Shown piece by piece: positions 9,713 through 26,549 of a stretch of 64,000 nt of DNA (positions within the stretch are counted from its first letter, which is position 1; each line of letters starts with the position of its first letter). This DNA is from Ignavibacteriota bacterium (GTDB lineage Bacteria > Bacteroidota > Ignavibacteria > UBA10030). The notes below the pieces were generated by a model, which worked only from the letters and a program-made list of their open reading frames with translations, did no database searches and was not told where the DNA came from. The translations under genes and the position numbers were made by a program. Location: positions 107,312 to 171,311 of the forward strand of contig CAVYML010000004.1 of assembly GCA_963769605.1 (NCBI GenBank). The letters are read 5' to 3'.

Positions 9713-9727
9713 AAGTGTATTTGTGCA

Positions 9728-9837
9728 TAGTTCGTAGTTCTTAGTTGGTTTGTAGTTCAATCTTGGTCAGCTCTTAACCACTCACAACGAACTAAGAACT
9801 ACGAACCAAGAACTACGAACTAAGAACCACGAACTAA
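9728..9837. repeat. Inverted pair of heptamer arrays: (TAGTTCN)n arm 9728-9759 and (GAAC[TC]A[AC])7 arm 9789-9837
   Basis: Read directly. tagttcgtagttctt in the left arm is the exact complement of aagaactacgaacta in the right arm. It lies between convergent aroA and bshC, so a bidirectional terminator-like hairpin is plausible. Confidence 0.85.
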
Positions 9838-9840
9838 TTC

Positions 9841-11487
9841 TTACCCGCTTATAAAAACCACCTGATGTTTGAACTTATTTATTTCTATTTCTTGATGCAG
9901 CCACCGCACAAATTCCAGACCGTATTTATTTAAGAAATAGATCAAATTAATTTTCCGTTCCTGCAGGCTGGAGAGCGGAAAAATACAGTCGGAAACGCGA
10001 TCTATTTGACGCAGAGCTGTCTGGTTCTGACGTGCCTGAGCCGCGACGGTTTTTTCCTTCAGGACGGAAAGATTTCCGGCCATTTTTGATAGTGTATTTT
10101 CAAGTGCCGGAATTAACGTTGGATCGATTTTTTCCAGACCGCTCCGTAAACTATTGAGCGATTCTTCGATTGTACCGGCAGTGTCGGTAAAGAGCGGCTC
10201 TATCTTGAAATCTGAAATCTGTTCGACTATATACTGCTTAACCAATTCTTTTTCTTGAAAGATCTGCAAAAAATTCAAATCGAATTTATCGATGATCTTT
10301 TGAACTCGTTCTTCAATGATGGTTAGGCTCGCACGCGGATAGATAAGAGGTTCCGGAATGTCAAAATATTCGTACAGAAGCTTGAACTGTGCGAAATATG
10401 CTATCTCTGCAGGTCCTGCAACATATGAAATTGTCGGCAAAAGGAAGTCCTGGCAAATCGGCCGCAAGACGACATTGGGACTAAAAGCTTCGGGAGATTG
10501 TTCCAAAAGATTGAGAATTTCTTCCGTTGTAAAATACTGACGCGCGCCTTTCAAGGCAAATCCATCGGGATGAGGCTCTATGCCGAAACGGCCTCCGGGT
10601 TGATGGAGAAAAAGATTGACCGAACGCGGCTTGACCTGAGCATGGTATTTTTGTTCAAGCCGCTCACTCTCGGAAATAACGAGCCGGCAGCTTTTCGAAA
10701 TGTTCGTCAATTCCCGCTTAAAGATGGGAGAAAGAAGCTGCTTTATTTCGGGCGTGTTCGGATCCAGAAAAATCAGGCCGGAATTTTCGAGAAGAACATT
10801 TAAAAGAGAAACAAAAGCTCTGCTGAGCGTTGTACCGGGGCGGTATGCAGAACGGAAGAGTTCAAGAACCCCCGATGTAAACTCAGTCGGCAATAATTCG
10901 GATTGGAGATGCTGAAATACTTGCTCGATGGACTCCGTTAACGGAAGATGTCCCACTGATCCGAGATTACGTGAAACATTTTTTACTTCTTCTTCATATG
11001 TCAGTGTCACGATATCGTTGGAAGCATTGAGAATATTTATCGATGCTATTTCTTCAAAGTCGTGATCTTCTGTCTCTAACCAGAATACCGGAACGAAGCG
11101 ATATTCTGGGAAATCAACAGAAAGCTTCGCTGCCAGTTTGAGAGCCGCAATAGCTTTATAAATGGTATAGAGAGGGCCGCTGAAAAGTCCTACCTGTTGA
11201 CCGGTTACAACTGCAAAGGTGTTGTCGTTCATCAGCATATCGATATTCGCAAGCGTCTGAACGCCGCATTGAAAATCCCTGTTCTGGCGGGAGAGAATCT
11301 GTACAAGTTTCGATCGATCATGACTGTGCGCGCTAACCCGCTGGATTGCTGCATTCCAGTCTTTCCGTTCCTGAAAATTACCGCTGAAAAAAGTTTGCAG
11401 CGAAGCAAAATTCGTGATATAATCGAGAAAAAGCTTCGAAAATCCTGCTTCTTCTGATGAAAAATCGTCAAAGGGAATCCAATTCAT
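9841..11487 (-). CDS. bshC: Bacillithiol biosynthesis cysteine-adding enzyme BshC-like
   Basis: 548 aa, the size of the BshC family. N-terminus F..LFLDYI, internal YVAGPAEIAYFAQ and a C-terminal coiled region resemble BshC as I recall it. No database check was possible. Confidence 0.65.
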   Translation of the reverse strand: MNWIPFDDFSSEEAGFSKLFLDYITNFASLQTFFSGNFQERKDWNAAIQRVSAHSHDRSKLVQILSRQNRDFQCGVQTLANIDMLMNDNTFAVVTGQQVGLFSGPLYTIYKAIAALKLAAKLSVDFPEYRFVPVFWLETEDHDFEEIASINILNASNDIVTLTYEEEVKNVSRNLGSVGHLPLTESIEQVFQHLQSELLPTEFTSGVLELFRSAYRPGTTLSRAFVSLLNVLLENSGLIFLDPNTPEIKQLLSPIFKRELTNISKSCRLVISESERLEQKYHAQVKPRSVNLFLHQPGGRFGIEPHPDGFALKGARQYFTTEEILNLLEQSPEAFSPNVVLRPICQDFLLPTISYVAGPAEIAYFAQFKLLYEYFDIPEPLIYPRASLTIIEERVQKIIDKFDLNFLQIFQEKELVKQYIVEQISDFKIEPLFTDTAGTIEESLNSLRSGLEKIDPTLIPALENTLSKMAGNLSVLKEKTVAAQARQNQTALRQIDRVSDCIFPLSSLQERKINLIYFLNKYGLEFVRWLHQEIEINKFKHQVVFISG

Positions 11488-11499
11488 TAGTTTCTCAAA

Positions 11500-12330
11500 T
11501 TATGGAAGAGAAGTTAAAATAGCTTTCATTAATAAAACAAATTTTTCTTCAATACGGTTCGCGGTTTCCGTCACTTCGTTGTGGGATAATTTCAATTGCG
11601 AAATTCCGGTTGCGAGATTGGATATGAGCGAGATCGCGGCAGTCTTCATTCCAAGCTGTCGTGCGGATAAAATCTCCGGAACAGTCGACATGCCGACAGC
11701 ATCAGCGCCAAGAGTCTTGAGCATTTGGATTTCGGCAGCCGTTTCATAAGAGGGCCCCTTAAGCCAGCAGTATATGCCTTCTTGCAAGTGGATGCCGGAA
11801 TTGAAAGCGCATCGGCGAACGATGCTTTGCAAACCTGCATCAAAAAAATCAGGAGACGCAGCAGCATAAATATCCCGGATTTCAATGCGGGAGATAATTC
11901 GGAGAAAGGCAAGATTGATTGTATCACGAATCAACATAAGATCACCGTTCTTAAAATTTCTATTGATACCTCCGGCTGCATTAGTAACAAAGAGAGAGCG
12001 CACGCCAATTTTCCGGGCAAGATGAACAGGAAAGATGACCTTGTTGATGTCGCCGGATTCGTAAAAATGATTGCGCCCTTTGAAAATAAGCAGTGGAGGA
12101 GAGGTCTTTTCACCGTTTTGAAGAAATCCAAAAATGAGATCTCCTGCATGACCCGGGACAGATGAAACGGGATAATATGGAATATCATCTGCCGAGAGAA
12201 CGATTTCCGGCTGCATACAATCCGCCAGATTTCCGAGACCGGAGCCAAGAATAACGGCAACCGAAGGTCGAAAGGATGTTCGTGCCCGGATAAAATCGAC
12301 TGCAGACTGTAGTTCCTGATTGTTAATCAT
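11500..12330 (-). CDS. punA: Purine nucleoside phosphorylase (PunA/PNP-I type)
   Basis: Motifs VILGSGLG, GRNHFYE, TNAAGGIN and GPSYETAAEI..LGADAVGMSTVPE. The ORF-track start at 12390 reads through a palindromic repeat, so I prefer the ATG at 12330 (MINNQELQ). Confidence 0.85.
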   Translation of the reverse strand: MINNQELQSAVDFIRARTSFRPSVAVILGSGLGNLADCMQPEIVLSADDIPYYPVSSVPGHAGDLIFGFLQNGEKTSPPLLIFKGRNHFYESGDINKVIFPVHLARKIGVRSLFVTNAAGGINRNFKNGDLMLIRDTINLAFLRIISRIEIRDIYAAASPDFFDAGLQSIVRRCAFNSGIHLQEGIYCWLKGPSYETAAEIQMLKTLGADAVGMSTVPEILSARQLGMKTAAISLISNLATGISQLKLSHNEVTETANRIEEKFVLLMKAILTSLP

Positions 12331-12421
12331 ACCTTTTTTATTCTCTTCTGTAGCCGACACCGGTGGTGTCGGATGTGCTTCCGCGGTCACCGTCCGTGGC
12401 TACCATGCAATGTCGTACTCT

Positions 12422-12480
12422 CTACGACGACCTCCCGATAATATTTAACAATATTCTCGGGACAAGCTGTCGCGGCTACA
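12422..12480 (-). repeat. 59-bp palindromic element, family R1 (reverse orientation)
   Basis: The reverse complement matches the copies at 29424, 30745, 30822 and 35796: TGTAGCCGCGAC..CCCGAGAATATTG.TAAATATTATCGGGAGGTCGTCG. Confidence 0.85.
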
Positions 12481-12532
12481 ATTTTAACCTGATATAATTC
12501 TGAAAATGAAATTACACGACAGCGCACATAAA

Positions 12533-12566
12533 AACTACGAACCACGAACGAAGAACTACGAACTTA
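12533..12566. repeat. Heptamer array GAAC[TC]A[AC]-type, single arm
   Basis: aactac gaaccac gaacgaa gaactac gaactta, read directly. Confidence 0.8.
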
Positions 12567-12579
12567 TATCGTCGTTTTT

Positions 12580-13167
12580 TTATTCTTTCGGTGGTTGATG
12601 GCATTTACGGCACCGAGCCTCATAAATATCCTTAGCTCCGACAACTACACGATCTTGTGATGCACTTTTTCGTTGTGTTCTATCGGCCGGATTGCCGCAA
12701 ATAACGCAAATAGCGAGTGTTTTCGTAATATACTCCGCAATAGCTAAAAGCTGAGGCATCGGATCGAACGGCTTGCCGCGATAATCCTGATCAAGTCCGG
12801 CTACAATCACTCTTTTGCCCTGAAAAGCGAGCTTTTCGCAGACTTCAACAAGGTTTTGCTTAAAGAACTGTCCCTCATCAATGCCGATAACCTGGGCATC
12901 ATCCATAAAAGAAAAAATCTCTTCCGCGTCTTCAATAACCTTTGCCATAAGCGATTGGTCGCTGTGCGTGACAATATTAACTGAACTGTAACGATTGTCG
13001 ACTTTTGGCTTAAAGACGGCGACTTTTTGTTTCGCTATCTGTGCACGCCGCAGGCGCCTGATAAGCTCTTCAGTCTTCCCGCTGAACATGCAACCGCAAA
13101 CAACTTCAATCCAACCTGTATTAAGGGGAACATGATGCAATGAGGAAGTATCCATAAAAAATTTCAA
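12580..13167 (-). CDS. tdk: Thymidine kinase
   Basis: P-loop [14 protein letters not shown] and a C-terminal zinc ribbon (CVICGNPA...CRKCH). Confidence 0.9.
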
Positions 13168-13249
13168 ATTTCAGATTGAAAATTGCAGATTTCCGTTTAT
13201 TGTCATTTTGTTATTGAGTTATAGAGTCGTTCTATTCGCATTTCACACT

Positions 13250-13675
13250 TTAATGTTCAAGATTTACTATCGAAAAAGCTAATGGTAAAAGCAATTTAAG
13301 TTTGGTTGTTTTGATCTTATCCATAGAATCGATCATGATGCAGTCGATATTTCCAGTTATATCCATAAGAACCTGCCTGCACGCACCGCAGGGAGGAGTA
13401 AAACCTGGTCCATCGGAAGCAACGGCAATTGCTAAAAAGGATCTTTCCCCTTCCGAGACTGCTTTAAAAAGGGCTGTTCTTTCCGCACAGATGGTCAGAC
13501 TATAAGAGCTGCTCTCAACATTACATCCTGTAAATATTTTTCCGGACTTCGTCAAAAGAGCAGATCCGACACCAAATTTCGAATACGGCGCGTAAGCATT
13601 CAAACGGGCTTCCCGTGCCTTCAAGGCCAATTCGCGATAGATTTGTTTCATAAATATAGTTCTATTCTTGATCAA
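13250..13675 (-). CDS. cdd: Cytidine deaminase
   Basis: Zinc motifs CAERTALFKAV and PCGACRQVLMD. The true start may be the internal Met at 13651. Confidence 0.88.
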   Translation of the reverse strand: MIKNRTIFMKQIYRELALKAREARLNAYAPYSKFGVGSALLTKSGKIFTGCNVESSSYSLTICAERTALFKAVSEGERSFLAIAVASDGPGFTPPCGACRQVLMDITGNIDCIMIDSMDKIKTTKLKLLLPLAFSIVNLEH

Positions 13676-13730
13676 GACAATATAGATAAGTTTATAGCTA
13701 TAAGCAATTTAGCAGTAAATAGTAAAAAAA

Positions 13731-13840
13731 TTCTTAGTGTGTAGTTAGTGCGTAGTGCGGAGTTCGTGGTTCGTGGTTAAAGAACTAAGAACCAAAAACC
13801 AAGAACCAAGAACCAAGAACTACAAACTAAGAACTAAGAA
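13731..13840. repeat. Inverted heptamer arrays (ttcttag/tgtgtag... arm and gaactaa/gaaccaa... arm)
   Basis: Left arm 13731-13788, right arm 13789-13840. ttcttagtgtgtagtt is a near-complement of aactacaaactaagaa. Confidence 0.85.
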
Positions 13841-15490
13841 TTAACCCTCGACCCAGAACGGATTTGTCAGGCAAAAATGCGATTTTTTATCGCACGAGTC
13901 CAGCGAATCTGTCCAAACTTCTGCTCGAATATATGAACTGCGATCCGCTGAAAACTCAAAATTTTTCTTAAAACTGTATTCGTTCGCTGAATTAGTAGAG
14001 AAAATTACCTTTTCGAAATCATTGCCTATCGCACCGGCCAGAATTGTAATATTCTTAAGCCTTCCATATTCAGAGGTGGAAACAGCCGTCAATGAAAAAT
14101 TCTTCATTTCGCCGGGGAAGCTAAATCCGATAATTGACGTTTCGCTGTTTTCTTTCGTAAGATTTGCAGCCGGACCGTCTGTGGCAATTGAATGGCCGTT
14201 TTTCAAAGCTGTGAGTATAGCTTTTTGAGTGAATTCGGTCGTGTAAATGCCTGTTCTCATCTTTCCAAAAAGCTGATCTCCATGTTCACGGATCAGGAAA
14301 AAGGGAATTCCAATTTGACGAAATCTATTGAAATTTCCATGGGCATCATTTCCGGCACACAAAAACATCTTCTTACCGGAGAGAAGCTGCTCTTTCCAAA
14401 ACGTATATCCTTCGTGGAATCCATGCGTTAGCGCCCCATTGATAAATTGAATTCCTTCTAATCGGTCATCTTCAAAATCGTTTTTTCCCCATCTCCCGCG
14501 TCTAAGAAGAAGTCTTTGAAGCATAGAGATCGGTTCAAAAGGGTGAGCTGCTATCGATACGCTCTCTGCCTCTTTTATGTCAAGAACATCGCTAATAGAA
14601 TGTTCGCTTCTTGTTTTAAGCCATCGTTCGGCGCTGTCTCCGCTTCCCTGAAGGAACCGTTCGTTGTTGAGAAGAAGGAAATGCACGTTTTGGCCCAAGC
14701 GGTTCCGGCAGCTTACTTCTTCCCCTTTAATTATAATGAATTCTCCGGTCTGTTCATTCAGATGTTTAACCTCGTCATCGAGCGCTTTCCATTTCGGGAA
14801 AGTGCCGTCAAACTCCAAATAATTGTCTAACGAATCGTCTAAATCGTAGGAATGATCGGTCACACAGAAAAAAGAGAGTCCCATTGCTTTGCCTAACTCG
14901 ATAGAAGCTCCCAGCGGTGAGCCGTATTCTACCTGATCACTTGTGTAATTCGAATGTGAATGAATTTCCCCCAAAAAGAGATTGTCAAATTGTGGAAGTT
15001 TTTTGTCCGAGATATAGGTACAAAGCGGTTTATGGCTGGAAGTGCGATAATTGTCGTTATGATATTTTTTAAACTTTCCGTTCCGGCGAATGGTAAACTC
15101 AACATCGCTTTCTAAAAAGCCGTGGAAACCTATCACCGGGACGCGGTATATCCGCCACCAAAACCTATCCGTCAGAGAAAACACGCCGGAAAAAAGGACG
15201 ATTCGTTCAGATGAAAAATCGTCTCGCAGCGTAATGGCAATTTCCGTCAGTTCACACGGATAGCGATCTGCGTCCTTTACAAAAAACAGAATCGGAAGAG
15301 AGTCGTGCGGATCGAGCCTGTGCGGCGCATCGGTAATAATTTCAGGTTCCCGCTTGTTCAGAAAACTGAAGAAGTATTTAAAACGATAATGGGTTTCGGC
15401 GTAAAGAACTATGGGAAGAAAAATAAATCCCAGAAATTTCACTAAAAATCGCAACGTTCCGAAGATCGTTAAAAAGTGCGTCCCTTCCAT
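13841..15490 (-). CDS. Membrane-anchored PHP-domain (polymerase/histidinol-phosphatase fold) metallo-phosphoesterase, function unknown
   Basis: 549 aa with a hydrophobic N-terminus and PHP metal motifs (GEIHSHSNYTSD, FCVTDHSYD, AGNDAHG). Last gene of the GT2 operon, overlapping the upstream gene by 22 nt. Confidence 0.65.
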   Translation of the reverse strand: MEGTHFLTIFGTLRFLVKFLGFIFLPIVLYAETHYRFKYFFSFLNKREPEIITDAPHRLDPHDSLPILFFVKDADRYPCELTEIAITLRDDFSSERIVLFSGVFSLTDRFWWRIYRVPVIGFHGFLESDVEFTIRRNGKFKKYHNDNYRTSSHKPLCTYISDKKLPQFDNLFLGEIHSHSNYTSDQVEYGSPLGASIELGKAMGLSFFCVTDHSYDLDDSLDNYLEFDGTFPKWKALDDEVKHLNEQTGEFIIIKGEEVSCRNRLGQNVHFLLLNNERFLQGSGDSAERWLKTRSEHSISDVLDIKEAESVSIAAHPFEPISMLQRLLLRRGRWGKNDFEDDRLEGIQFINGALTHGFHEGYTFWKEQLLSGKKMFLCAGNDAHGNFNRFRQIGIPFFLIREHGDQLFGKMRTGIYTTEFTQKAILTALKNGHSIATDGPAANLTKENSETSIIGFSFPGEMKNFSLTAVSTSEYGRLKNITILAGAIGNDFEKVIFSTNSANEYSFKKNFEFSADRSSYIRAEVWTDSLDSCDKKSHFCLTNPFWVEG

Positions 15491-16560
15491 TGAACCTTTC
15501 CGCCGAAAAAAACGAGAAATGGGAGAAGAATGACATAGAGTATAAAATAAATCTCAAAATAGTAAAACCATTTCAGCTCGGAAATGCGTTCCACACGTTT
15601 CAGAAAGCGATAGAGGAAAATGTAATCGAAAATAAATTTAACCAAAAGCATGGAAGCGGAAAGAACAACACTACCCCAGTACAGCATAACAAACGGAGAA
15701 ACATGCATGCAAAATCCGATGACCATAATAAAAAAGCCGGAAATTTTCATATCGAGAGCGCCTTTTCCCCAGCGCTGTTTTTGACGGAGAAGTGTTTTCC
15801 AATCGGAACATGGTTTGCTTTCCACCATCGTTTTCGGATCGATGGGATAAATATAATCCCATCGGCAGGAATCAATAATAGCCTGAACGATCGTATAATC
15901 CTCCGTGACACTGAACTTCAGTTTTCGGTAGCCGCCCACATGGTCGTATGCTTTTCTTTTAAACGAGAGATTGTTTCCGATACTGCCGTGCTGATGGCCG
16001 AGACCTGCAGTCGAAGCCGCCATGCCGAGAATAAATGCCCAGTCTAAAGATTGCATGCCTTCAAACCAGTTGGCATTTCTTTGCAGCGTAATTCCGCCGA
16101 TCAGTCCGATATTTCCTTCATAATGCTGAGCAGTGCATTCGATCCAAGTGGATGGCACCGTGCAATCGGCATCTGTAATAAGAATCACCTCACCGTGCGA
16201 GGCCTCGATGCCGCAGGCCAGGGCATTCGGTTTGCCGGGCAGATTTGGATTTTCGGGCGCGGCAATGCAGAGAAGGTTAGGAAACCGCTCCATAAATGCT
16301 TTGCAAATATCCGCAGTGTTATCCGTGGAATTATCGTCGACAACAATCACTTCAAAAAGGTTCGACGGGTACGTTTGCCTAAGGACAGAAGTAAGGCAAT
16401 TCGCGATATTATTTTCTTCATCGCGTGCGGCAATAATGACGGAAACGAAAGGAGATGCATGGCCGGCACGATCCCGTGTCCGGGTCAATCCGTACAAGAA
16501 CAGGAGCACAAGACAGCCATAGCAAATCGTTGCGATAATGAGAAAAAGTTCAAAATTCAT
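15469..16560 (-). CDS. Family 2 glycosyltransferase, integral-membrane processive-synthase type
   Basis: N-terminal TM helix, VSVIIAARDEE, DDNSTDNT, ITDADC, a Q(K)QRW-type motif (LRQKQRWGKG) and C-terminal TM helices. Confidence 0.8.
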   Translation of the reverse strand: MNFELFLIIATICYGCLVLLFLYGLTRTRDRAGHASPFVSVIIAARDEENNIANCLTSVLRQTYPSNLFEVIVVDDNSTDNTADICKAFMERFPNLLCIAAPENPNLPGKPNALACGIEASHGEVILITDADCTVPSTWIECTAQHYEGNIGLIGGITLQRNANWFEGMQSLDWAFILGMAASTAGLGHQHGSIGNNLSFKRKAYDHVGGYRKLKFSVTEDYTIVQAIIDSCRWDYIYPIDPKTMVESKPCSDWKTLLRQKQRWGKGALDMKISGFFIMVIGFCMHVSPFVMLYWGSVVLSASMLLVKFIFDYIFLYRFLKRVERISELKWFYYFEIYFILYVILLPFLVFFGGKVQWKGRTF

Positions 16561-16580
16561 ATTCCAAATCCCATCCGTTA

Positions 16581-16686
16581 TCCTTCATCCTTCATCCTTC
16601 ATCCTTCCCCCCTCCTCCTATCATTCATCCTTCATCATTCATCCTTCATCCTTCATCATTCATCATTCATAATGTTTCATCCTTCT
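16581..16686. repeat. Heptamer array TCATCCT/TCATCAT inside the operon (minus-strand reading ATGAAGG/ATGAATG)
   Basis: Read directly. It fills the gap between the deacetylase stop (16677) and the GT2 start (16560). A CT-rich core (ccccctcctcc) lies in the middle. Confidence 0.85.
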
Positions 16687-17420
16687 AAAGTCGCAAATGT
16701 ATAATGACGTTTTAAAAGCGAATCGAGAAGAGTACGAAGCGTCTGTTCTGCAGATCCGGAAGTAGATTTATTGTCGTGAAAAAGGAGGATGTCTCCTCCT
16801 TTAAAAGTCCGCCCGGCAAGAGATCGATCGAACGTATTTTTCCGGTGAAGATAATCTTTGGAATCAAACGACCAGAGTACCGGCTTTAAAGAACATTGCG
16901 CGGCAATCTTAAGCGTCTCAATGCGAAAATAACCGTACGGCGGCCGAAAAAATTTCGGCGTCGTGAGAGTATATTTTATAATCGCATCATTTGTTTTCAA
17001 TAATTCGTCGTGGGTAACAGCCGCACTGCACCAGAAGAGATTTCTATGCATAAATCCGTGATTTTCCGCGGAATGTCCTTCTTCGGCAATGCGGCGCGCA
17101 AGTTCAGGATATCGTTCGATATGTTCGCCGTTGAGAAAAAAAGCAGCTTTAATACCATACTGCCTGAGTATATCCAGAACAGCAGGAGTCGCTGCAGGAT
17201 GAGGCCCGTCGTCGAATGTCAGATGAATGCTCGGCGATTGCGTTCTGCAAAGAATCGATGGAAACAATCGCTCTATCACTGAAATAGGATATTTCAAGGT
17301 AAATGCCAATGTGTTATTAAATGCCCAGTCTGCATTGTAGCCGCAACCGTTAGTCGATTTAGCGGGAGGTGGTGCGGATCCTCCGACACCACCAAAACGC
17401 CGCCGGCTGCAGAAAAACAA
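16677..17420 (-). CDS. Polysaccharide deacetylase (NodB homology domain, CE4)
   Basis: HLTFDDGPH, then HSAENHGFMH and RPPYGY, which are NodB motifs. The N-terminal start is uncertain. Confidence 0.82.
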   Translation of the reverse strand: MFFCSRRRFGGVGGSAPPPAKSTNGCGYNADWAFNNTLAFTLKYPISVIERLFPSILCRTQSPSIHLTFDDGPHPAATPAVLDILRQYGIKAAFFLNGEHIERYPELARRIAEEGHSAENHGFMHRNLFWCSAAVTHDELLKTNDAIIKYTLTTPKFFRPPYGYFRIETLKIAAQCSLKPVLWSFDSKDYLHRKNTFDRSLAGRTFKGGDILLFHDNKSTSGSAEQTLRTLLDSLLKRHYTFATLEG

Positions 17421-17466
17421 TTTCTGTGATAATCACTCAAAACTCTGTCATACCATGCGAAGAAAT

Positions 17467-18684
17467 TCATTTCACGACTGTATCGTTACGTCCTCTCCAG
17501 CGAAGCGGTGCCAGCTGCCCGATAGCTGCCGCAATGAGAATATACGGAACATGCAGAAGCTCTGCAATGAAAAAATGGAAGACCGGGATGCGCTGTTCCC
17601 AGAGCTTTGCGCCTATGCGCAGGGTCAGGAAATCGACCGCAATTTTTCCTGCATAACCGACCGCGAGAGGCAGCCAGAGCTGCGGTGACCAAAACAGAAG
17701 CGCAGCACAGAACGCCGTACTCAGGAAAAAAAGATACAAACAAAAAAGTTCCAGAAGTATAGTCCAATCGGAATAATGTCCTTTCTTAGCTGCCCAGCGC
17801 AGGCGCTGGCGGAAAAAAGAAGCGGGATCATTGTTCGATTTTGTCGAGACGACGGCCGGATATTCCCATGCAAAATCAATGGAGCCGATATGCCGGCTCA
17901 CCATGATGTTCATCAGCATTTCATCGTCGTTTGCCGCACTGCCGGAACCAAAACCGCCTGCAATAAAAAAAGCATCGCGCCTGTATGCAAGATTGGCGCC
18001 GTTGCAAATAATGGGTCGTTTCGATCCGATCAGTCCCGCTCCGACGCAAATGAGGCCGAGAAATTCGAGTTTTTCCATTTTAGAAAAAAACGACGATCCG
18101 CCTGTTTCCAAAACCGGACCTGCAACCATAACCACGCCTTTTGTAAAATGACGCACCATAGTCAAAGTCCAGTTATTCGAGACCGTGCAATCTGCATCGG
18201 TGGTAAGTATAATTTCGCCTTTTGCTTCTTCGATTCCGCGTGCAAGAGCCGCAGGTTTGCCGCTCCGGTCTGCATCCGCAGAAAGAATTTTAAGATTCCG
18301 AAAAGATTTGCTTAACTCTGAAAGTTTTTGAAATGTTCCGTCCGTCGAATGGTCGTCGATAACGATCACTTCAAAGCGATTCTTCTGATAATTTTGCAGC
18401 AGCAGGGAATGAAGGCACCTGCCGATGTTCCGTTCTTCATTCCGCGCCGCTACGACGATGCTCGCAAAGGGAATTTTTTCTTCAAGAGGCTGCCGGATTA
18501 ATTTTGCGAAGCCAAGCTGAACGCGGGCGAGGAAGAAAAGATAATACAGCGTAAAAAAACAAAGACAGATAAGAGCGATAGTTTCACACACAAAAATATC
18601 CGTTACGGTTGTTTGTTGAATAGTTGACGTGAAGCGCTGAAAAAAGCCGAAAAGTCCATCGACCGGATAAATGGAATGCCGCAA
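17467..18684 (-). CDS. Family 2 glycosyltransferase, integral-membrane processive-synthase type (paralog 2)
   Basis: ASIVVAARNEE, DDHSTDGT, TTDADC, QRLRW and C-terminal TM helices. An alternative GTG start at 18591 would remove the 82-nt overlap with the upstream gene. Confidence 0.8.
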   Translation of the reverse strand: MRHSIYPVDGLFGFFQRFTSTIQQTTVTDIFVCETIALICLCFFTLYYLFFLARVQLGFAKLIRQPLEEKIPFASIVVAARNEERNIGRCLHSLLLQNYQKNRFEVIVIDDHSTDGTFQKLSELSKSFRNLKILSADADRSGKPAALARGIEEAKGEIILTTDADCTVSNNWTLTMVRHFTKGVVMVAGPVLETGGSSFFSKMEKLEFLGLICVGAGLIGSKRPIICNGANLAYRRDAFFIAGGFGSGSAANDDEMLMNIMVSRHIGSIDFAWEYPAVVSTKSNNDPASFFRQRLRWAAKKGHYSDWTILLELFCLYLFFLSTAFCAALLFWSPQLWLPLAVGYAGKIAVDFLTLRIGAKLWEQRIPVFHFFIAELLHVPYILIAAAIGQLAPLRWRGRNDTVVK

Positions 18685-19604
18685 AGCGCCGGCAGAAAAA
18701 CATTGGCAAAGAAAATCAGCAGGGAAACATTGACGGAAGCGTCGTAAGAAACGGCAAAATGGGAAAAAACATACACGGAAGTCAGTTCCCGTACGCCAAG
18801 ATCGCCGATGGAGAACGGCACGAATGATTTAAGAAACAAAACCAGGGATGTTCCCATAAACGCGGCGCCGGGAGATACGGGAACAAATGCATTGAAGAAA
18901 AAATACATCTGCAAACATATTGCGCCCCAGAACAGGAACGCAAAGAGAAGGGAAAACATTTGCCGCCGGCGATTGATGCTGAACATGCCGGCGACGATGC
19001 GTTCAAGCATCGGAAAACGGGAAATATATCTGGAAAAAATAAAACGGGAATTGCCGAAAATCGCAAAAGCGAAAAGGCTCAGGAGCAAAAGGAGAAAAGA
19101 AAGCGCTGCCGCAGCCGTACTGCCGGGGAATAACACAGGCGCCAGACACAGAGCGCCGGTCATGCAAAAAACCAGAAGCGTCTGAATACGATCGAGGAAT
19201 GTCAATCCGATGACCATGGATTTTTTTGTCTCGGTCAGGTGCAGCGTGCGGCCTGCAAAATCGCCGATTTCTGCCGGAGTGAACGATCCGATTGTAATAC
19301 CGAGCATAACGGATCGGATGGTCTCAAGCCACGATGGGTGTTCCTTTATCGAACGGAGCAGAATGTTCCATCGGATGATGCGGATACCGAGATTAACCGG
19401 AACAAGAGCAAATCCGGCGAGAAGAAACCGGATATCGGCAGCAGCAAAAAGACGAACGATGGAATGCACATCGACAAGCCTAAAAACAAAATACAATGCT
19501 ATAGCAGCAAAAAATAATTTGCTCGCAAATACAATCCACGGATGTGTTATAAAGCTCCGGCACCGTTCTGTAAATGCTGAAATTTTCATTTTGATGCTTT
19601 CCAT
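18603..19604 (-). CDS. UPF0104 / lysylphosphatidylglycerol-synthase-TM-like (flippase-like) membrane protein
   Basis: 333 aa, polytopic and hydrophobic, with the family-typical N-proximal R..RW..LL motif (RIIRWNILLRS). Confidence 0.6.
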   Translation of the reverse strand: MESIKMKISAFTERCRSFITHPWIVFASKLFFAAIALYFVFRLVDVHSIVRLFAAADIRFLLAGFALVPVNLGIRIIRWNILLRSIKEHPSWLETIRSVMLGITIGSFTPAEIGDFAGRTLHLTETKKSMVIGLTFLDRIQTLLVFCMTGALCLAPVLFPGSTAAAALSFLLLLLSLFAFAIFGNSRFIFSRYISRFPMLERIVAGMFSINRRRQMFSLLFAFLFWGAICLQMYFFFNAFVPVSPGAAFMGTSLVLFLKSFVPFSIGDLGVRELTSVYVFSHFAVSYDASVNVSLLIFFANVFLPALCGIPFIRSMDFSAFFSASRQLFNKQP

Positions 19605-20752
19605 TCGAACGAAAAAATAAGGCCGAGCGGACCGATGCAGACGTTATACAGAAGATATAAAATCTCCATCCAGACGAATTTTGGAATCATGCCGTCGACT
19701 TCAAATTTCCCGGAACATAGTCCGATCAACATGGCGTCTGAAGCGAATTTCAGGCCGAAACAAATGATAAAAAAAACGGCATGTTCCGGAACAAGAAATA
19801 CCGCCGGCAAAGCGCACAGTAATGCAAGGTTGGAAAAATGATATGCCGCAAAAAATAGTTTCATAGGAATCGTGAAAAATTGCGCTGCGGAGAAGTGACG
19901 TTTGCGCTGTTCCACGAATTGCCGGAAACTCTGCGGAGGAAGAGTGGGAACATGGGATTCGCGGTTCACGAGGTATTGAATTTTCCATTGCGTTGTACGG
20001 CGAACATGCTGGAGAAACAGATCGTCATCGCCGCTTATCGAGCGCTTAATCGATTCAAAACCTCCGGCTTCTTTGTAAACGGAAGCGCGATAAGCCAGAT
20101 TACGCCCTGTGCAGAGCCAGCCGAGTTTCCAGCCGATGGAACCGCCCGCCCATATCCCTGCGCGGAATTCTTCGTAAGCGATAAATGAATAAAAGAGACG
20201 ATTCCATCCGCTGGAGCCGCAAGGAATTTCATACGGAGAGAAGCCTGCTGTAAGGCCTATTTCCGGCTCAAATGATAAAACGATATTACGTAGCCATCTG
20301 GGCGGTGGAAAGCTGTCTGCATCGGTGAAACAAAGAATTTCCCCTTTTGCTTCCCGGATACCGGAAGCCAATGCGTTTTTTTTTGCCGGCATATCGGAAG
20401 GAACTTCGGTTATCGTAAGAATCCTGAGTTTTGGCCATCTGCCGGCAAAAGCATTAGCTTTTTCAAGCGTCCGGTCTGTCGATCGGTCGTTGACAAGAAT
20501 AATTTCGAAATTATTGTAATCCTGCACCAATAAACAATTCAGAAGCCGGTCGATATTTTTTTCTTCATTGCGTGCTGCCACAATAACGGACACAAAGGGT
20601 TTATCCTTGGACAGATGCAGAGGCAGGCGGAAGACACCGAGCATCAAAGCGCAATGAACGCCAGCATAAAAAATACCGGAGAGAAGCAGAATAAATGTGA
20701 ATGCTGTGACCATTATATGCTCAAAGATGTCAAATAATCGATCGGAATGCAA
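19586..20752 (-). CDS. Family 2 glycosyltransferase, integral-membrane type (paralog 3, degenerate QxxRW = QRKRH)
   Basis: VSVIVAARNEE, NDRSTDRT, FTDADS and C-terminal TM helices. First gene of the minus-strand operon. Confidence 0.78.
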   Translation of the reverse strand: MHSDRLFDIFEHIMVTAFTFILLLSGIFYAGVHCALMLGVFRLPLHLSKDKPFVSVIVAARNEEKNIDRLLNCLLVQDYNNFEIILVNDRSTDRTLEKANAFAGRWPKLRILTITEVPSDMPAKKNALASGIREAKGEILCFTDADSFPPPRWLRNIVLSFEPEIGLTAGFSPYEIPCGSSGWNRLFYSFIAYEEFRAGIWAGGSIGWKLGWLCTGRNLAYRASVYKEAGGFESIKRSISGDDDLFLQHVRRTTQWKIQYLVNRESHVPTLPPQSFRQFVEQRKRHFSAAQFFTIPMKLFFAAYHFSNLALLCALPAVFLVPEHAVFFIICFGLKFASDAMLIGLCSGKFEVDGMIPKFVWMEILYLLYNVCIGPLGLIFSFEWKASK

Positions 20753-20763
20753 TCTCTTTTAAA

Positions 20764-20910
20764 TTGTAAACTGTGAATTGTGAACAGTAAACTGATGAAC
20801 TAAATAACCTAATAACTGACGAACTAAACAACGTTGCACCTCCGCACGGTAGCACCGCTGAATAGCAACACCTTTTTTGCAGTTCACAGTTCGCAGTTTT
20901 CAGTTTGCAG
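20764..20910. repeat. Inverted heptamer arrays (TGTAAAC/TGTGAAC arm and CAGTTCA/CAGTTCG arm) around a GC-rich core
   Basis: Left arm 20764-20832. Core gttgcacctccgcacggtagcaccgctgaatagcaacacc. Right arm 20879-20910. Located in the divergent promoter region between the GT2 operon and the M16 peptidase. Confidence 0.8.
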
Positions 20911-21005
20911 CTTTATCGCTCATTGCTTCTCTTCCAAAAATCCGGTATCTTTCCAATAAGTGGTGAAAATCATTGCCAAAAACGCAGTATTTATCCTGAG
21001 GACTC

Positions 21006-22313
21006 TTGAAAAGATTAAAAAGCCATACGCTTTCGAAGCTGTTTATTCCCGAAACCGATAAAGCCGTTTCGAGTTCATATAAGAAGACTGTCATGCCCAA
21101 CGGTGTGAGGATTGTTTCTGAATATTTGCCGCATGTCCGTTCCGTCTCTCTTGGCATCTGGGTGGATATCGGATCGCGCTATGAAACTTCCCTTGACAAT
21201 GGAATCACGCATTTTATCGAACACATGGTTTTCAAAGGAACCAGGAGGCGGAGCACGCTGGCAATTGCCCAGAGCTTAGAGATGGTAGGAGGCTACCTGA
21301 ATGCTTTTACGGGCAAGGAACATACATGTTTTTATGCAAGGGTTCTCGATGAGCATGTGGAACTTGCTATGGATGTCCTGTCGGATATGATCGTCAATCC
21401 GACATTTCCTTCCAAAGAAATCATCAAAGAAAAGAACGTTGTTATCGAAGAATTGCACGAGACGGAAGACGATCCGGACGATGTCATACACGATTATTTC
21501 GAAAAGGTTTTATTCGGCACGCATCCTTTAGCTCTGCCGATAATCGGGACGGAAAAGAGCATCCGCGCTTTTACTCGAAAACAGTTGTCAATCTTTCGCC
21601 GGACCCATTATGCGGCAGATAGGTTAGTCGTGGCGGCGGCAGGGAATGTCACACACGAAGAAGTTGTCCGGCTAAGTCATCGCTATCTGGGCGATTTAAA
21701 GCCTTCCGGGAGGATGGAACAGACGCCGGCTGCTGCCATTCCGTCTCCATCGCACGGGCGATTTGAATATAAAAGACATATTACACAATCGCATATTTGC
21801 ATGGGTACAGTCGGATTCGATATACGGCACAAAAAGCGGTTTCCGCTGCAGGTCCTGAGCACGCTCATGGGCGATGGAATGAGTTCGCGCCTTTTCCAGA
21901 ATATCCGGGAAAAGTACGGCTTTGCGTATGCGGTGTACAGCTTCAACAATCATCTTTCGGATACCGGTTCCTTCGGCGCCTATATCGGTACCGACGATCA
22001 GCATGTCGACCGCTGCATCGACCTGCTCTGGAAGGAATTCAAAAATTTACAATCGGTTTCCATTAAGAAAAAAGAAATAGATCGTGCAAAATCGCAGCTC
22101 AAAGGAAGTTTAATGCTCGGCCTGGAAAGCACATCCAACCGCATGATCAGGCTGGGAAGCTCGGAATTGTACTTCGGGGAATTGACATCCCAGGACGCAA
22201 TTCTTAAAATGATTGACGATGTCACAATAGATCAAGTGGAAGAAGTTGCACAAGAATTGTTTCACGATTCGAGATTTATTACGATTATTTTTAGACCGGA
22301 AGAGAAGAAGTAA
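21006..22313 (+). CDS. M16-family zinc peptidase (pitrilysin/insulinase-like)
   Basis: Inverted zinc motif HFIEHMVFKG with a downstream E. About 430 aa with two M16 halves. The start could be TTG 21006 or ATG 21090. Confidence 0.85.
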   Translation: MKRLKSHTLSKLFIPETDKAVSSSYKKTVMPNGVRIVSEYLPHVRSVSLGIWVDIGSRYETSLDNGITHFIEHMVFKGTRRRSTLAIAQSLEMVGGYLNAFTGKEHTCFYARVLDEHVELAMDVLSDMIVNPTFPSKEIIKEKNVVIEELHETEDDPDDVIHDYFEKVLFGTHPLALPIIGTEKSIRAFTRKQLSIFRRTHYAADRLVVAAAGNVTHEEVVRLSHRYLGDLKPSGRMEQTPAAAIPSPSHGRFEYKRHITQSHICMGTVGFDIRHKKRFPLQVLSTLMGDGMSSRLFQNIREKYGFAYAVYSFNNHLSDTGSFGAYIGTDDQHVDRCIDLLWKEFKNLQSVSIKKKEIDRAKSQLKGSLMLGLESTSNRMIRLGSSELYFGELTSQDAILKMIDDVTIDQVEEVAQELFHDSRFITIIFRPEEKK

Positions 22314-22328
22314 CTGTGGAAAAGAAAT

Positions 22329-22365
22329 CGCGAATCGCAGATTGTCAATTGTAAACTGCTGATAT
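22329..22365. repeat. Short degenerate heptamer array (cgcgaat cgcagat tgtcaat tgtaaac tgctgat)
   Basis: Read directly. Confidence 0.6.
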
Positions 22366-22398
22366 AGATTTTTTTAAATTCATTCACAAGGAAATACC

Positions 22399-23622
22399 AT
22401 GAGTGATTCATCGATAAAAACAAATAAAGTCTCCATTTCAAAACGCGCAAGAGAAATACAGGGTTCGCCTATACGCAAACTTGCTTTTAGCGCCGAAGCA
22501 AGAAAAAAAGAAGGTATAAAAGTTTTCCATTTGAATATCGGTCAGCCCGATTTGCCGTCGCCGATTGCAGTACGGGATTTTATGCATTCATTTTCGGAAA
22601 AAACCATCGAATACGCACCGTCGAACGGGCTGCCGCAGGTTTTGAATGCATGGAAAAATTACTTTTTCCATTGCGGCATACATTATCACGAAAATGAAAT
22701 GGTCGTTACAACCGGAGGTTCGGAGGCGCTGATCTTTGCACTTTGCGCTGTCTGTGATCCGGGAGATAATGTCATCGTCTTCGAGCCTTTCTATACGAAT
22801 TATGCGGGATTTGCTTCGATCGCCAATGCAAATTTGACGCCGATTCCGTTGCGCATACAGGACAGTTTTCAATTGCCTTCGAAAGAGGAAATAGAAAAAC
22901 ATATCACGCCGAGAACAAAGGCAATTCTGTTTTGCAATCCTTCCAACCCCACCGGAAAAGTGTACCGCAAAGAAGAACTGCGTGAACTGGTAGATCTGGC
23001 GCTTGAATATAATCTTTTCCTTATATCCGATGAAGTATACAGGGAATTTGCCTACGAAAAAAAACCTATCAGCATCGCGAATATTCCGGAAGTTTTCGAA
23101 CAGGCTATTTTGGTCGATAGCTGTTCAAAACGGTTCAATATGTGCGGAGCAAGAGTGGGTGTTCTGGCGACGAAGAACAGGGAAGTTCTCGATGCGGTTT
23201 TAAAATTCGGAATGGCAAGATTATCGGTGGCAACGATGGAACAACTTTCTATGGTTCCGATGTTAAATAATCCGAATACCTTCGTCAAGCCGATGGTGGA
23301 AGAATTCCGCAGGCGGCGCGATGCAGTATATGAGAGTTTGACGAAAATTCCGGATGTGACATATTACAAACCGGAAGGAGCATTTTATATTGTCGTCGGA
23401 CTGCCGGTGAACGATGCGGAGCACTTTGCAAAATGGATGATAGAAGAATTCGACGATAAGAACGAGACCGTTTTAGTAGCTCCGGCACAAGGATTTTATG
23501 CAACGCCGGGAAAAGGAAAAAACGAGGTTCGTTTGGCCTTTATGCTGAACGTCCCGGATTTGCAGCGTTCGCTCGAGATTATAGAAAAAGCCCTCAATGT
23601 CTATAGAGGACAGTTTATTTAA
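22399..23622 (+). CDS. Class I/II PLP-dependent aminotransferase (aspartate/aromatic type)
   Basis: 407 aa with NPSNPTG, then SCSKRFNMCGARVG (PLP lysine context). Confidence 0.82.
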   Translation: MSDSSIKTNKVSISKRAREIQGSPIRKLAFSAEARKKEGIKVFHLNIGQPDLPSPIAVRDFMHSFSEKTIEYAPSNGLPQVLNAWKNYFFHCGIHYHENEMVVTTGGSEALIFALCAVCDPGDNVIVFEPFYTNYAGFASIANANLTPIPLRIQDSFQLPSKEEIEKHITPRTKAILFCNPSNPTGKVYRKEELRELVDLALEYNLFLISDEVYREFAYEKKPISIANIPEVFEQAILVDSCSKRFNMCGARVGVLATKNREVLDAVLKFGMARLSVATMEQLSMVPMLNNPNTFVKPMVEEFRRRRDAVYESLTKIPDVTYYKPEGAFYIVVGLPVNDAEHFAKWMIEEFDDKNETVLVAPAQGFYATPGKGKNEVRLAFMLNVPDLQRSLEIIEKALNVYRGQFI

Positions 23623-23631
23623 GAGCAGTAA

Positions 23632-23702
23632 ATAGTTCTTAGTTCGTTGTTCTTAGTTCGTAGCTAAAAAGAACTACGCACCAAGCACTAAGCACTACGA
23701 AC
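23632..23702. repeat. Inverted heptamer arms forming a hairpin (tagttct tagttcg ... / gaactac gcaccaa gcactaa gcactac)
   Basis: Read directly. Loop ctaaaaa. Lies between the aminotransferase stop and the nuoG start. Confidence 0.8.
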
Positions 23703-23719
23703 ATCTTCATAGTTTTGAT

Positions 23720-25375
23720 ATGATTAAAATCAACATAGACGGCAAAGAATTCCAGGTAGACCCGAAAAGCACCATTATCGAAGCGGCTGCTCTGAATGGA
23801 ATAGAGATTCCGCATTTTTGCTGGCATCCGAAACTTACCGTTTCCGGAAACTGCCGGATGTGCCTTGTCGAAGTAGAAAAAATGCCGAAGCTTGTTATCG
23901 CATGCGCCACACAGGTTGCCGAAGGGATGGCCGTAAAAACACGGAGCGAAAAAGTTATCAAGGCGCGGAATGCCGTTATGGAATTCCTGCTCATCAACCA
24001 TCCTCTCGATTGCCCGATTTGCGATGAAGCAGGGGAATGCAAACTTCAGGATTACGCGTATAAGTACAGCTCAGGAATCAGCAGGTTCCGGGAAGATAAG
24101 GTTCACAAGCCCAAACGGATCGAACTGGGTCCGAATGTTTTACTGGACGATGAACGCTGCATTATGTGTTCGCGCTGCATTCGTTTTTCTGAAGAAATTG
24201 CCGGTCAAAAAGTTCTGACCTTTACCGAACGGGGCACACATGTCGTTCTCAGGACATTCCCCGGAACGCAATTGGATAATCCATACTCGATGAATGTTAT
24301 AGAGATCTGTCCCGTAGGCGCGCTTACAAGCAAAAATTTTCGTTTCAAATCGCGCGTGTGGGAAATGTCCTCGACGGAAAGCATTTGCACAGTCTGTGCC
24401 CGCGGCTGCAACGCAAATGTATGGGTCAGGAATAATGAAGTACTCCGATTGACACCGCGCGTGAATGCAGAAGTAAACGATATGTGGATGTGCGACGAGG
24501 GGCGGCTGAAATCCGTGGAACAGACCAAAGGGGGGAGGGTCTTGAATGGATGTCTTCAAAGAAAAGAAGGTATGCAGGCGGAAGTCGACTGGGACGAAGA
24601 ACTTGCGAGGCTTATTTCCGATCTCAGGACTTATAAGAAAAATGAAATCGCCGGCATTGCTTCTCCTTACGCTTCCAACGAAGATAACTATGTTTTTCTC
24701 AGGCTCATGCGCGATATTATAGGAACGAAGAATTTATTTTTTCTTTCCCATGCCGGCAGCGGAAAAGACGACAATTTGTTAATTCGCGCAGATAGGACAC
24801 CGAACCGGAACGGCGCGCTTCTTCTGGGGCTGCAATCGGGAGATGAAAATGAAAATCGGGAAAAGTTGATTGCAAATATCGTTAAACGGTCGATTAAAGT
24901 TCTTTATGTAATGGAAGATAATATTGCACTCGACCCGAAATTGCTTAAGGTACTGCCGAATCTGGAACTGCTTATCGTTCATGCTGCGGAACGCAGCCAA
25001 ACGACGGCTCTGGCCGATCATGTAATTTCCGTCTCGAATGCAATGGAAAAACATGGAACGATGATAAATTTCCAGAAGAGAATTCAACGTTTGCGGCCTG
25101 CTCTCGTGACGGTAGAACAGGAACGTGCGCAGGAAAATTTATCCATGAGCCGGTGGGATGCATTTGCCGCGCCGAATGATAGATGGGGCAAAGGACCAAG
25201 ACGGGATGCACGTCCATCATGGCGTGTTCTTCAGGCAGTGGCAAACGGACTGGGCGGTAAAATGAAATTCACATCTGCAGAAGACGTTTTTAAAGAAATG
25301 GCAGAAAAAATTCCGGAGTTTAAAGGACTGAATTATTTGAAGATAGGAGCGAAAGGAGTAGCTTTAAAGCGGTGA
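23720..25375 (+). CDS. nuoG: NADH-quinone oxidoreductase subunit G-like (short form)
   Basis: N-terminal 2Fe-2S and 4Fe-4S cysteine clusters (CWHPKLTVSGNCRMCLVE, HPLDCPICDEAGECKLQD, CIMCSRCIRF, CPVGAL), then a molybdopterin-like domain. Confidence 0.85.
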   Translation: MIKINIDGKEFQVDPKSTIIEAAALNGIEIPHFCWHPKLTVSGNCRMCLVEVEKMPKLVIACATQVAEGMAVKTRSEKVIKARNAVMEFLLINHPLDCPICDEAGECKLQDYAYKYSSGISRFREDKVHKPKRIELGPNVLLDDERCIMCSRCIRFSEEIAGQKVLTFTERGTHVVLRTFPGTQLDNPYSMNVIEICPVGALTSKNFRFKSRVWEMSSTESICTVCARGCNANVWVRNNEVLRLTPRVNAEVNDMWMCDEGRLKSVEQTKGGRVLNGCLQRKEGMQAEVDWDEELARLISDLRTYKKNEIAGIASPYASNEDNYVFLRLMRDIIGTKNLFFLSHAGSGKDDNLLIRADRTPNRNGALLLGLQSGDENENREKLIANIVKRSIKVLYVMEDNIALDPKLLKVLPNLELLIVHAAERSQTTALADHVISVSNAMEKHGTMINFQKRIQRLRPALVTVEQERAQENLSMSRWDAFAAPNDRWGKGPRRDARPSWRVLQAVANGLGGKMKFTSAEDVFKEMAEKIPEFKGLNYLKIGAKGVALKR

Positions 25376-25512: not shown

Positions 25513-25518
25513 GCATAT

Positions 25519-26545: not shown

Positions 26546-26549
26546 GATA

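Follow-up and report, generated by a model that had tools for sequence, protein, structure and literature searches.

Gene content of the cluster

The DNA analysed here is a stretch of 64,000 nucleotides (nt) from an Ignavibacteriota bacterium (contig CAVYML010000004.1 of assembly GCA_963769605.1), referred to below as the window. On its minus strand, in the block 13841-20752, lie six co-directional open reading frames (ORFs), which a first-pass annotation made from the letters alone had described as an operon of three membrane glycosyltransferases of family GT2, a deacetylase, a UPF0104 protein and a PHP phosphoesterase. The ORF listing places all six genes in this block, and their families and operon status stand, as do the motifs QRKRH, QRLRW and QKQRW quoted for the three glycosyltransferases.

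The first gene in the direction of transcription encodes GT2A, a membrane GT2 glycosyltransferase with the motif QRKRH (19586..20752; 388 amino acids (aa) from TTG 20752; PF00535, E 1e-23); an alternative in-frame ATG lies 13 codons downstream and would give 375 aa. It is followed by a flippase-like polytopic membrane protein of the UPF0104/PplT/LPG_synthase_TM type (18603..19604; 333 aa; PF03706 and TIGR00374), whose alternative start, Met6, would create an ATGA overlap with the GT2A stop codon. GT2B, a membrane GT2 glycosyltransferase with the motif QRLRW (17467..18591; PF00535, E 5e-28), now starts at GTG 18591 (374 aa) instead of TTG 18684, because the supposed N-terminal extension is interrupted by a stop codon in a second allele of this locus, found on contig C7. 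This GTG lies 11 nt past the UPF0104 stop codon, and GT2B homologues have 375-376 aa. The start of the CE4 (NodB-homology) de-N-acetylase (16677..17297; PF01522, E 3e-35) was also corrected, to TTG 17297, and the resulting 206 aa match the 206-207 aa of its homologues. GT2C, the third membrane GT2 glycosyltransferase (15469..16560; 363 aa), is GT21-like, with TED and QKQRW motifs and with matches to PF00535 (E 4e-28) and PF13506 (GT21; E 1e-9); PF00535 is thus found by Pfam in all three enzymes, with E values of 1e-23 to 4e-28. The last gene encodes a PHP-superfamily metallohydrolase of the CehA/McbA family (13841..15490; 549 aa; NF038032, 84.8 bits). All six genes are on the minus strand.

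That all genes are tightly packed or overlapping, as had been claimed, applies to part of the operon. GT2A and UPF0104 probably overlap, as ATGA, GT2C and PHP overlap by 22 nt, and a spacer of 11 nt separates UPF0104 from GT2B. The two remaining junctions are wider, with a non-coding spacer of 169 nt between GT2B and CE4 (17298..17466) and one of 116 nt between CE4 and GT2C. Both junctions are 4-nt overlaps in relatives, so these spacers are insertions specific to this lineage. The CE4-GT2C spacer is occupied by a tandem array of 14 copies of the heptamer AAGGATG, as read on the sense strand (16572..16670; TRF score 114), and each heptamer unit holds an ATG and an overlapping TGA. A scan for sigma-70 promoters and terminators gave signal at background level only.

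Conservation and modular variation of the cluster

Conserved linkage in other genomes had been set beforehand as a test of the operon, and the linkage is found. Two PHP homologues, of about 50% identity, occur in the same order GT2-UPF0104-GT2-CE4-GT2-PHP, and their loci also share the upstream neighbours of the window, an M16 peptidase, an aminotransferase and nuoG. Architectures were counted in the 48 loci whose flank upstream of PHP extends to 7.5 kb or more: a glycosyltransferase gene lies directly upstream of PHP in 46, and in most loci it is GT2C; UPF0104 is present in 37, where it follows GT2A, and CE4 in 38, directly after a GT2 gene in most of these. The canonical six genes occur in 15 loci, and in one more with a split GT2C. 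The gene order recurs at about 40-55% protein identity across dozens of genomes, which is above chance, and the six-gene set is a genuine operon, kept in uncultured Ignavibacteria-type bacteria.

The other loci deviate in distinct ways. A GT28-like GT-B glycosyltransferase gene lies next to PHP in 14 of the 48 loci; a phmmer search of this variant protein against the sequences of the Protein Data Bank (PDB) gave no useful match. Four loci are reduced to one or two GT2 genes directly upstream of PHP, the other cluster genes being absent, two hold PHP alone, and several are of a KSB1 type with a radical SAM/SPASM gene and sometimes Wzi. Some loci (such as L024) lack exactly the GT2B-CE4 pair, leaving GT2A-UPF0104-GT2C-PHP, and others (such as L040 and L047) lack CE4 only. 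This pattern of presence and loss suggests that the cluster behaves as three modules, GT2A-UPF0104, GT2B-CE4 and GT2C-PHP, and the variation looks like the gain and loss of sugar-adding steps.

In the KSB1-type loci, from KSB1 and unclassified metagenome-assembled genomes (MAGs; L063, L073, L076, L082 and L083), the small radical SAM/SPASM gene sits between the first GT2 gene and UPF0104; some of these loci also hold a Wzi-family outer-membrane protein and a GxGYxYP glycoside hydrolase, and the CE4 protein of L076 has 449 aa, with an N-terminal extension. Genes of the lipopolysaccharide (LPS) core type were seen no more than a few kb from the cluster in one locus (L001, 17997-21650), which has two GT9 heptosyltransferases, a Wzy_C/O-antigen-ligase-like gene and an MsbA-like ABC transporter there, and in another (L075, 5478-8724) two GT9 genes flank a stand-alone PHP gene, which hints at a link with the outer-membrane envelope.

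Among the scored candidates, over 1,600 are homologous to the PHP protein at E <1e-3, and those with a name come from Ignavibacteria and 'Bacteroidota' MAGs. An exhaustive search returned 335 clusters (50% identity) at E <1e-30, nearly all full-length at 510-560 aa. In a scan with one genome per species, relatives were present in at least 493 genomes, of which the best 80 are Ignavibacteriota, KSB1 and Calditrichota MAGs. The gene occurs in 25 of 301 high-quality genomes of the phylum, confined to three families, and in 18 of 25 genomes of the window's own family in a wider sample of relatives. Judged from these searches, the cluster is lineage-restricted, to three families of the phylum plus KSB1 and Calditrichota.

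The three GT2 enzymes resemble ceramide glucosyltransferase

Alignments of orthologues show that the NEE, DxSxD and DAD motifs are kept in all three GT2s, whereas the third acidic motif is GDDD in GT2A, DD in GT2B and TED in GT2C. GT2B orthologues conserve DAD together with QRxRW. The loss of the Trp residue from the QxxRW motif of GT2A had been taken as a sign of a non-catalytic or altered role, and a non-catalytic role is not borne out: QRxR[H/Y] is conserved, together with DAD and GDDD, in 54 sequences (the window protein and 53 orthologues) that form one monophyletic clade. Fixation across such a group indicates that the change is not a recent loss, and GT2A shows a dN/dS of 0.16 relative to the C7 allele.

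Hydrophobic segments number 1-2 at the N-terminus and 3-4 at the C-terminus of each GT2; in GT2A they lie at the N-terminus and within residues 303-382. PF13506 (GT21) matches all three, with E values of 5e-10 to 2e-9. Positions 13-330 of the GT2C orthologue profile align with residues 17-338 of ceramide glucosyltransferase (E 8e-15), the only solved structure that aligns near full-length with this profile, whereas the match of GT2C to BcsA and HAS is restricted to the first ~115 residues of the nucleotide-binding fold. The GT2A profile behaves like that of GT2C (E 2e-9 with ceramide glucosyltransferase, positions 15-258). Ceramide glucosyltransferase is non-processive and transfers a single sugar to a membrane lipid, so that the earlier label of processive-type synthases finds no support. 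Features shared with this enzyme (GT21; PDB 26qf and related entries) include an N-terminal transmembrane (TM) helix, a GT-A fold, the acidic motifs D1/D2/D3, (Q/R)xxRW and C-terminal membrane helices, and judging from these the three GT2s are catalytically intact, with a ceramide-glucosyltransferase (GT21-like) architecture. The similarity is low (58 bits), and the solved enzyme is eukaryotic, with ceramide as acceptor.

These comparisons also bear on the proposal that processive or semi-processive GT2s make a partly de-N-acetylated polymer of N-acetylhexosamine (HexNAc) or a chito-oligomer, similar to poly-N-acetylglucosamine (PNAG), chitosan or a Nod factor, which would be exported via their own membrane domains. 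Such a product would agree with the D,D,D,QxxRW-type motifs, with TED in GT2C, with PgaC/IcaA being the top NCBIfam match of the GT2s, with a CE4 enzyme that is NodB-sized and, like NodB, cytoplasmic, and with the Wzi gene of the KSB1 variants. Nevertheless, the scores lie far under the cut-offs: 58-80 bits against 422 for PgaC_IcaA (TIGR03937), 34-36 against 550 for NodC, and 124 against 240 for CE4 with the NodB model. Among the window ORFs there is no PgaA, PgaB, PgaD, IcaD, NodA or outer-membrane exporter, a NodA-like gene is also absent from the operon and the related loci, and CE4 lacks the signal peptide expected in a PgaABCD or IcaADBC system. The full-length alignment with ceramide glucosyltransferase, as opposed to the partial ones with BcsA and HAS, points away from a polymer as well, as do the conservation in the cluster of a gene of the UPF0104 lipid-flippase family and the presence of a separate Wzy-type polysaccharide locus at 44-64 kb of the window. 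We regard a polymer as a rather improbable product, and agree with the first-pass annotation that the operon is orthologous to none of the PNAG, Nod and Ica systems.

An isoprenoid lipid might also serve as acceptor, either a carotenoid, glycosylated as by CrtQ, CruC or CruG, or a hopanoid, to which HpnI adds N-acetylglucosamine (GlcNAc) that HpnK deacetylates to bacteriohopanetetrol (BHT)-glucosamine, with a radical SAM ring contraction in the variants. GT2C does match HpnI over residues 9-363 of its 363, all three GT2s match CruG over their length, in both cases below threshold, and the radical SAM genes of KSB1 and some Ignavibacteria variants recall HpnJ. The HpnI score, however, is 66.8 bits against a cut-off of 310, and TIGR01507 is unmatched in the genome. 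A search of this 100%-complete genome for phytoene desaturase found matches to the FAD-binding N-terminus only (best E 3e-9, none over the cut-off), one for hopene cyclase found no match, and most relatives with the cluster likewise lack both enzymes. For want of a crtI-class desaturase and a hopene cyclase, carotenoids and hopanoids were rejected as acceptors; the idea is largely refuted for this genome, and we give it hardly any weight.

The deacetylase and the UPF0104 protein point to a probable lipid pathway of a known type

The CE4 motifs TFDDGP, HxxxH, RPP[YF]G and LxHD are conserved in the orthologue alignment, and the best solved relatives of the enzyme are GlcNAc deacetylases (E 4e-30). 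No signal peptide, TM segment or other hydrophobic segment was found in CE4, and for this reason it is predicted to be cytoplasmic. The UPF0104 protein scores 96.4 bits with PF03706 (LPG_synthase_TM; cut-off 33.4) and 46.2 bits with TIGR00374 ('flippase-like domain'; cut-off 43.2) and has at least six hydrophobic segments; a phmmer search against PDB sequences gave no useful match. By these profile matches, the UPF0104/PplT protein belongs to the MprF-flippase family. UPF0104/PplT domains are often fused to GT-A and GT-B glycosyltransferases, and PplT of E. coli interacts with phosphatidylglycerophosphate (PGP) phosphatases and ClsB (bioRxiv 10.1101/2022.03.11.483950).

Such a set of functions is found in two characterised systems. 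In Clostridioides difficile, HexSDF combines a glycosyltransferase, a CE4 polysaccharide deacetylase and an MprF-like flippase to make aminohexosyl-hexosyl-diradylglycerol; HexNAc is added first and its later de-N-acetylation yields a cationic glycolipid, the acetylated intermediate builds up without HexD, and HexS is annotated as a monogalactosyldiacylglycerol (MGDG) synthase or MurG-like transferase (PMC10128005). Compared by description, the present operon likewise joins lipid glycosyltransferases, a CE4-family deacetylase and a stand-alone PF03706 protein, and the GT28-like GT-B gene of the 14 variant loci adds to the likeness. The differences are three GT2 (GT21-like) enzymes in place of the MGDG-synthase/MurG-like HexS, a CE4 enzyme without export signal where HexD is modelled as possibly extracellular, and a PHP hydrolase that is absent from HexSDF. 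HexSDF is also Gram-positive and controlled by HexRK, whereas no regulator is linked to the operon here.

In Pseudomonas aeruginosa, GpgSDF consists of a GT4 glycosyltransferase, a deacetylase and a UPF0104/COG0392 protein and produces glucosaminyl (GlcN)-phosphatidylglycerol (PG), and its expression in E. coli is sufficient for GlcNAc-PG and GlcN-PG (PMC12713373). This is a three-step synthase-deacetylase-UPF0104 operon in a diderm, with synthase and deacetylase predicted to be cytoplasmic and the flippase acting after them. It differs in its soluble GT4 enzyme GpgS and COG3233 deacetylase GpgD, compared with membrane GT2s and a PF01522 CE4 enzyme here, in placing one sugar onto a phospholipid, compared with three glycosyltransferases here, and in having no PHP hydrolase.

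The statement that no characterised pathway has this composition needs to be revised in view of HexSDF (PMC10128005) and GpgSDF (PMC12713373), which supply the core logic of a lipid glycosyltransferase, a deacetylase and a UPF0104 flippase. The flippase and the deacetylase have counterparts in these systems while the synthases are not orthologous, which suggests a function like that of the synthase-deacetylase-flippase (S-D-F) systems and membership in neither characterised family. By analogy, the operon is most likely an uncharacterised, larger, GT2-based variant of the scheme proven in the two other bacteria.

A different use of the same parts would be a polyprenyl-phosphate route, in which one or more GT2s load HexNAc on undecaprenyl phosphate, CE4 deacetylates it, UPF0104 flips it and a GT-C enzyme encoded elsewhere passes the sugar on to lipid A, to LPS or to a protein. 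Routes of this kind are ArnC/ArnD/ArnEF/ArnT, Bordetella LgmABCD and Francisella FlmF2/NaxD/FlmK, and the part of PHP here would be to recycle the carrier or to trim a phosphate of lipid A. A GT2 enzyme, a CE4-type deacylase and a flippase make up the Arn logic, which this operon matches, ArnC structures match the GT2s weakly (E about 1e-9), and the LPS-core genes near the L001 cluster and the two GT9 genes flanking the stand-alone PHP of L075 would fit a product of this kind, as would COG0392 taking its name from the archaeal AglD2 (PMC12713373, Table 2). Nevertheless, the matches to ArnC, GtrB and DPMS are limited to the N-terminal nucleotide-binding part, whereas in all three GT2s a Q(R/K)xR(W/H) motif is combined with several helices at the C-terminus, as in ceramide glucosyltransferase; a linked GT-C (ArnT-like) gene is missing from the loci examined, and three glycosyltransferases exceed the need of a single-sugar carrier. 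This route therefore seems unlikely to us.

The PHP metallohydrolase

The 549-aa PHP protein has no match in a Pfam search, and NF038032 (CehA/McbA metallohydrolase) covers its residues 174-548 with 84.8 bits, just over the cut-off of 80. The PHP family profile matches TM0559 (E 9e-7), PolX and YcdX, and Pfam PHP, PHP_C and DUF3604 are weakly matched by 7, 3 and 5 of 27 family members, respectively. A phmmer search of the protein against PDB sequences gave no useful match. In an alignment of 126 sequences, the metal ligands H177, H179, E188, H213, E258, H270, H316, D382 and H384 are invariant, completing the ligand set HxH...D/E...H...E...H...H...DxH that the PHP superfamily places on a distorted (beta/alpha)7 barrel, and D212 is conserved in at least 90%; from these residues the protein is predicted to have an intact trinuclear-type site. 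R331 is also invariant, as are R58 and R522 in a smaller alignment, and a motif close to the membrane is conserved. An AlphaFold2 (AF2) model built on the 126-sequence alignment reached a pLDDT of 93.7, with an alternating beta/alpha core. In it, a short hydrophobic helix of low confidence at the N-terminus is followed by a beta-sandwich at residues 50-145, the PHP barrel and, at the C-terminus, a second beta-sandwich. Y30, E32, H34, D54 and R58 of the beta-sandwich domain are invariant and, like the N-terminal anchor, specific to this PHP family. In contrast to the superfamily members matched here (CehA/McbA, TM0559, YcdX and PolX), the present gene, which is translationally coupled to GT2C, has a genomic context of glycosyltransferases and not one of xenobiotic catabolism or DNA repair.

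The anchor itself is less certain than the annotation of the protein as TM-anchored implied, since the uncharged N-terminal run that precedes YAExHY, an invariant motif, is only 10 residues long in the family median. Lys and Arg counts in the family are 0.3 before the anchor and 3.6 after it. We predict that the anchor is weak or monotopic and that the catalytic part faces the cytoplasm.

The term phosphoesterase had been an assumption. CehA and McbA use a PHP-like domain to hydrolyse esters of carbamate (PMC8292978), and the fold therefore does not reveal which bond the present enzyme cleaves; its substrate may be a non-phosphate ester. A phosphoesterase role is nevertheless suggested by another gene pair. 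In the PlcP-Agt system of SAR11, Roseobacter, rhizobia and Pseudomonas, a phosphoesterase makes diacylglycerol from phospholipids and a glycosyltransferase glycosylates it (PMC4796936). There, a metallophosphoesterase gene adjoins a lipid glycosyltransferase gene, a layout shared by the minimal GT-PHP pairs. PlcP is a calcineurin-like metallophosphoesterase and Agt a GT4 enzyme, compared with a PHP fold and GT2 here, and the PHP analogy is our inference; PlcP-Agt serves phosphate-stress remodelling. On this analogy, we favour a PHP enzyme that supplies diacylglycerol or dephosphorylates a phospho-intermediate.

A proposed pathway to an aminoglycolipid

Taken together, these features make it fairly probable, in our judgement, that the operon is an assembly line for a short oligoglycosyl amino-sugar membrane lipid, predicted to be built on the cytoplasmic side of the inner membrane. 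Of the two products guessed at in the first-pass annotation, a hexosamine oligomer or a glycolipid, the glycolipid is thus the better supported. The steps would run in the order PHP, GT2C, GT2B, CE4, GT2A and UPF0104, roughly the reverse of the gene order, which is consistent with which modules the variant loci can spare. The PHP enzyme would supply or mature the lipid acceptor, in the favoured version by taking a phosphate or phospho-head group off a glycerophospholipid or a phosphorylated intermediate to yield diacylglycerol, like PlcP. GT2C would then attach the first hexose and GT2B a HexNAc, from which CE4 would take off the acetyl group to leave a cationic hexosamine (HexN). GT2A, with its altered acceptor motif QRxRH, might attach a further sugar, and the UPF0104 protein would flip the completed lipid to the outer leaflet. 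Given a CE4 enzyme without export signal and positive charges that follow the PHP anchor, all of the chemistry would be cytoplasmic, making a flippase necessary. The glycosyltransferase added in the 14 variant loci also counts for a lipid product, as it is GT28-like; to our knowledge, the characterised GT28 enzymes (MurG, MGD1 and UgtP) all use lipid acceptors.

Several points weigh against this pathway. The acceptor, the donor sugars and the step order are all inferred. The GT2s differ in family from HexS, which we take to be of GT28 type, and from the GT4 enzyme GpgS, so that synthase orthology is absent; the best NCBIfam matches of the GT2s, although far sub-threshold, include PgaC/IcaA; and the flippase role of HexF and GpgF is itself only putative. 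The KSB1 variants hint at polysaccharide, since they carry Wzi, an outer-membrane protein of capsule assembly, as well as a GxGYxYP glycoside hydrolase. The step assigned to the PHP enzyme is the least secure: CehA and McbA, its relatives with a name, act as carbamate esterases and not as phosphoesterases, Foldseek gave no informative match for the PHP protein, and the enzyme occurs without adjacent glycosyltransferases in a few loci.

A more far-reaching version, which we put forward tentatively, would make the PHP protein the founding member of a class of PHP-fold membrane-lipid phosphoesterases, analogous to PlcP or to phosphatidic acid (PA)/PGP phosphatases, with translational coupling to a GT21-like glycosyltransferase. 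The GT2B-CE4 and GT2A-UPF0104 modules might complete a self-contained line that turns phospholipid into an oligoglycosyl lipid, cationic and free of phosphorus, and module gain and loss across Ignavibacteria, KSB1 and Calditrichota would set how many sugars it bears.

Next to nothing is known about the membrane lipids of Ignavibacteria, KSB1 and Calditrichota, as hardly any of their members have been cultured, and a literature search on Ignavibacterium glycolipids returned nothing relevant. Given that the cluster is near-universal in the family of the window and occurs in at least 493 genomes at species level, it is likely to determine a major envelope lipid of these groups. Should the aminoglycolipid pathway be correct, the synthase-deacetylase-flippase principle, for which C. 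difficile and P. aeruginosa are the only proven cases, would extend to GT2 enzymes and multi-sugar head groups, UPF0104/PplT proteins would gain another natural substrate class, and an uncharacterised PHP hydrolase family of several hundred clusters could be given a lipid-related role. In C. difficile and P. aeruginosa, cationic aminoglycolipids change the charge of the cell surface and how well the cells resist cationic antimicrobials.

A second allele and the genomic surroundings

The genome assembly holds a second copy of the locus on contig C7 (19,637 bp), collinear over its full extent with window positions 9419-28931. Its identity to the window is 97.4% across bshC-punA-tdk-cdd-PHP-GT2C and drops to only 86-89% over the segment that runs from CE4 to GT2A and on into the upstream genes for the M16 peptidase, the aminotransferase and nuoG, a step inside the operon that suggests recombination. 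A true duplication was considered and rejected given that the entire 19.6-kb contig is collinear with the window; C7 is most likely a co-assembled strain variant. The C7 allele also has the heptamer array, and its GT2B/CE4 spacer differs, with a length of ~290 nt and a repeat found elsewhere in the genome. Its operon genes are intact, and dN/dS values of 0.09-0.26 relative to the window, for five of the genes (GT2B was left out for the stop codon in its longer ORF extension), indicate purifying selection.

Directly downstream of the operon, on the same strand (window 9841-13675), lie bshC (bacillithiol cysteine-adding enzyme), punA, tdk and cdd, with repeats filling the intergenic spaces; the presence of these genes indicates that the organism makes bacillithiol. 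Further along the window, the region 44000-64000 has a low GC content (27-38%, compared with about 45%) and encodes the Wzy-type polysaccharide locus, with a pyruvyl transferase, an EpsG-family polymerase-like protein, a GT2 and a DegT aminotransferase, together with a GT4, a radical SAM/SPASM protein and an arabinofuranosidase-like protein. This region is probably a variable O-antigen or exopolysaccharide island.

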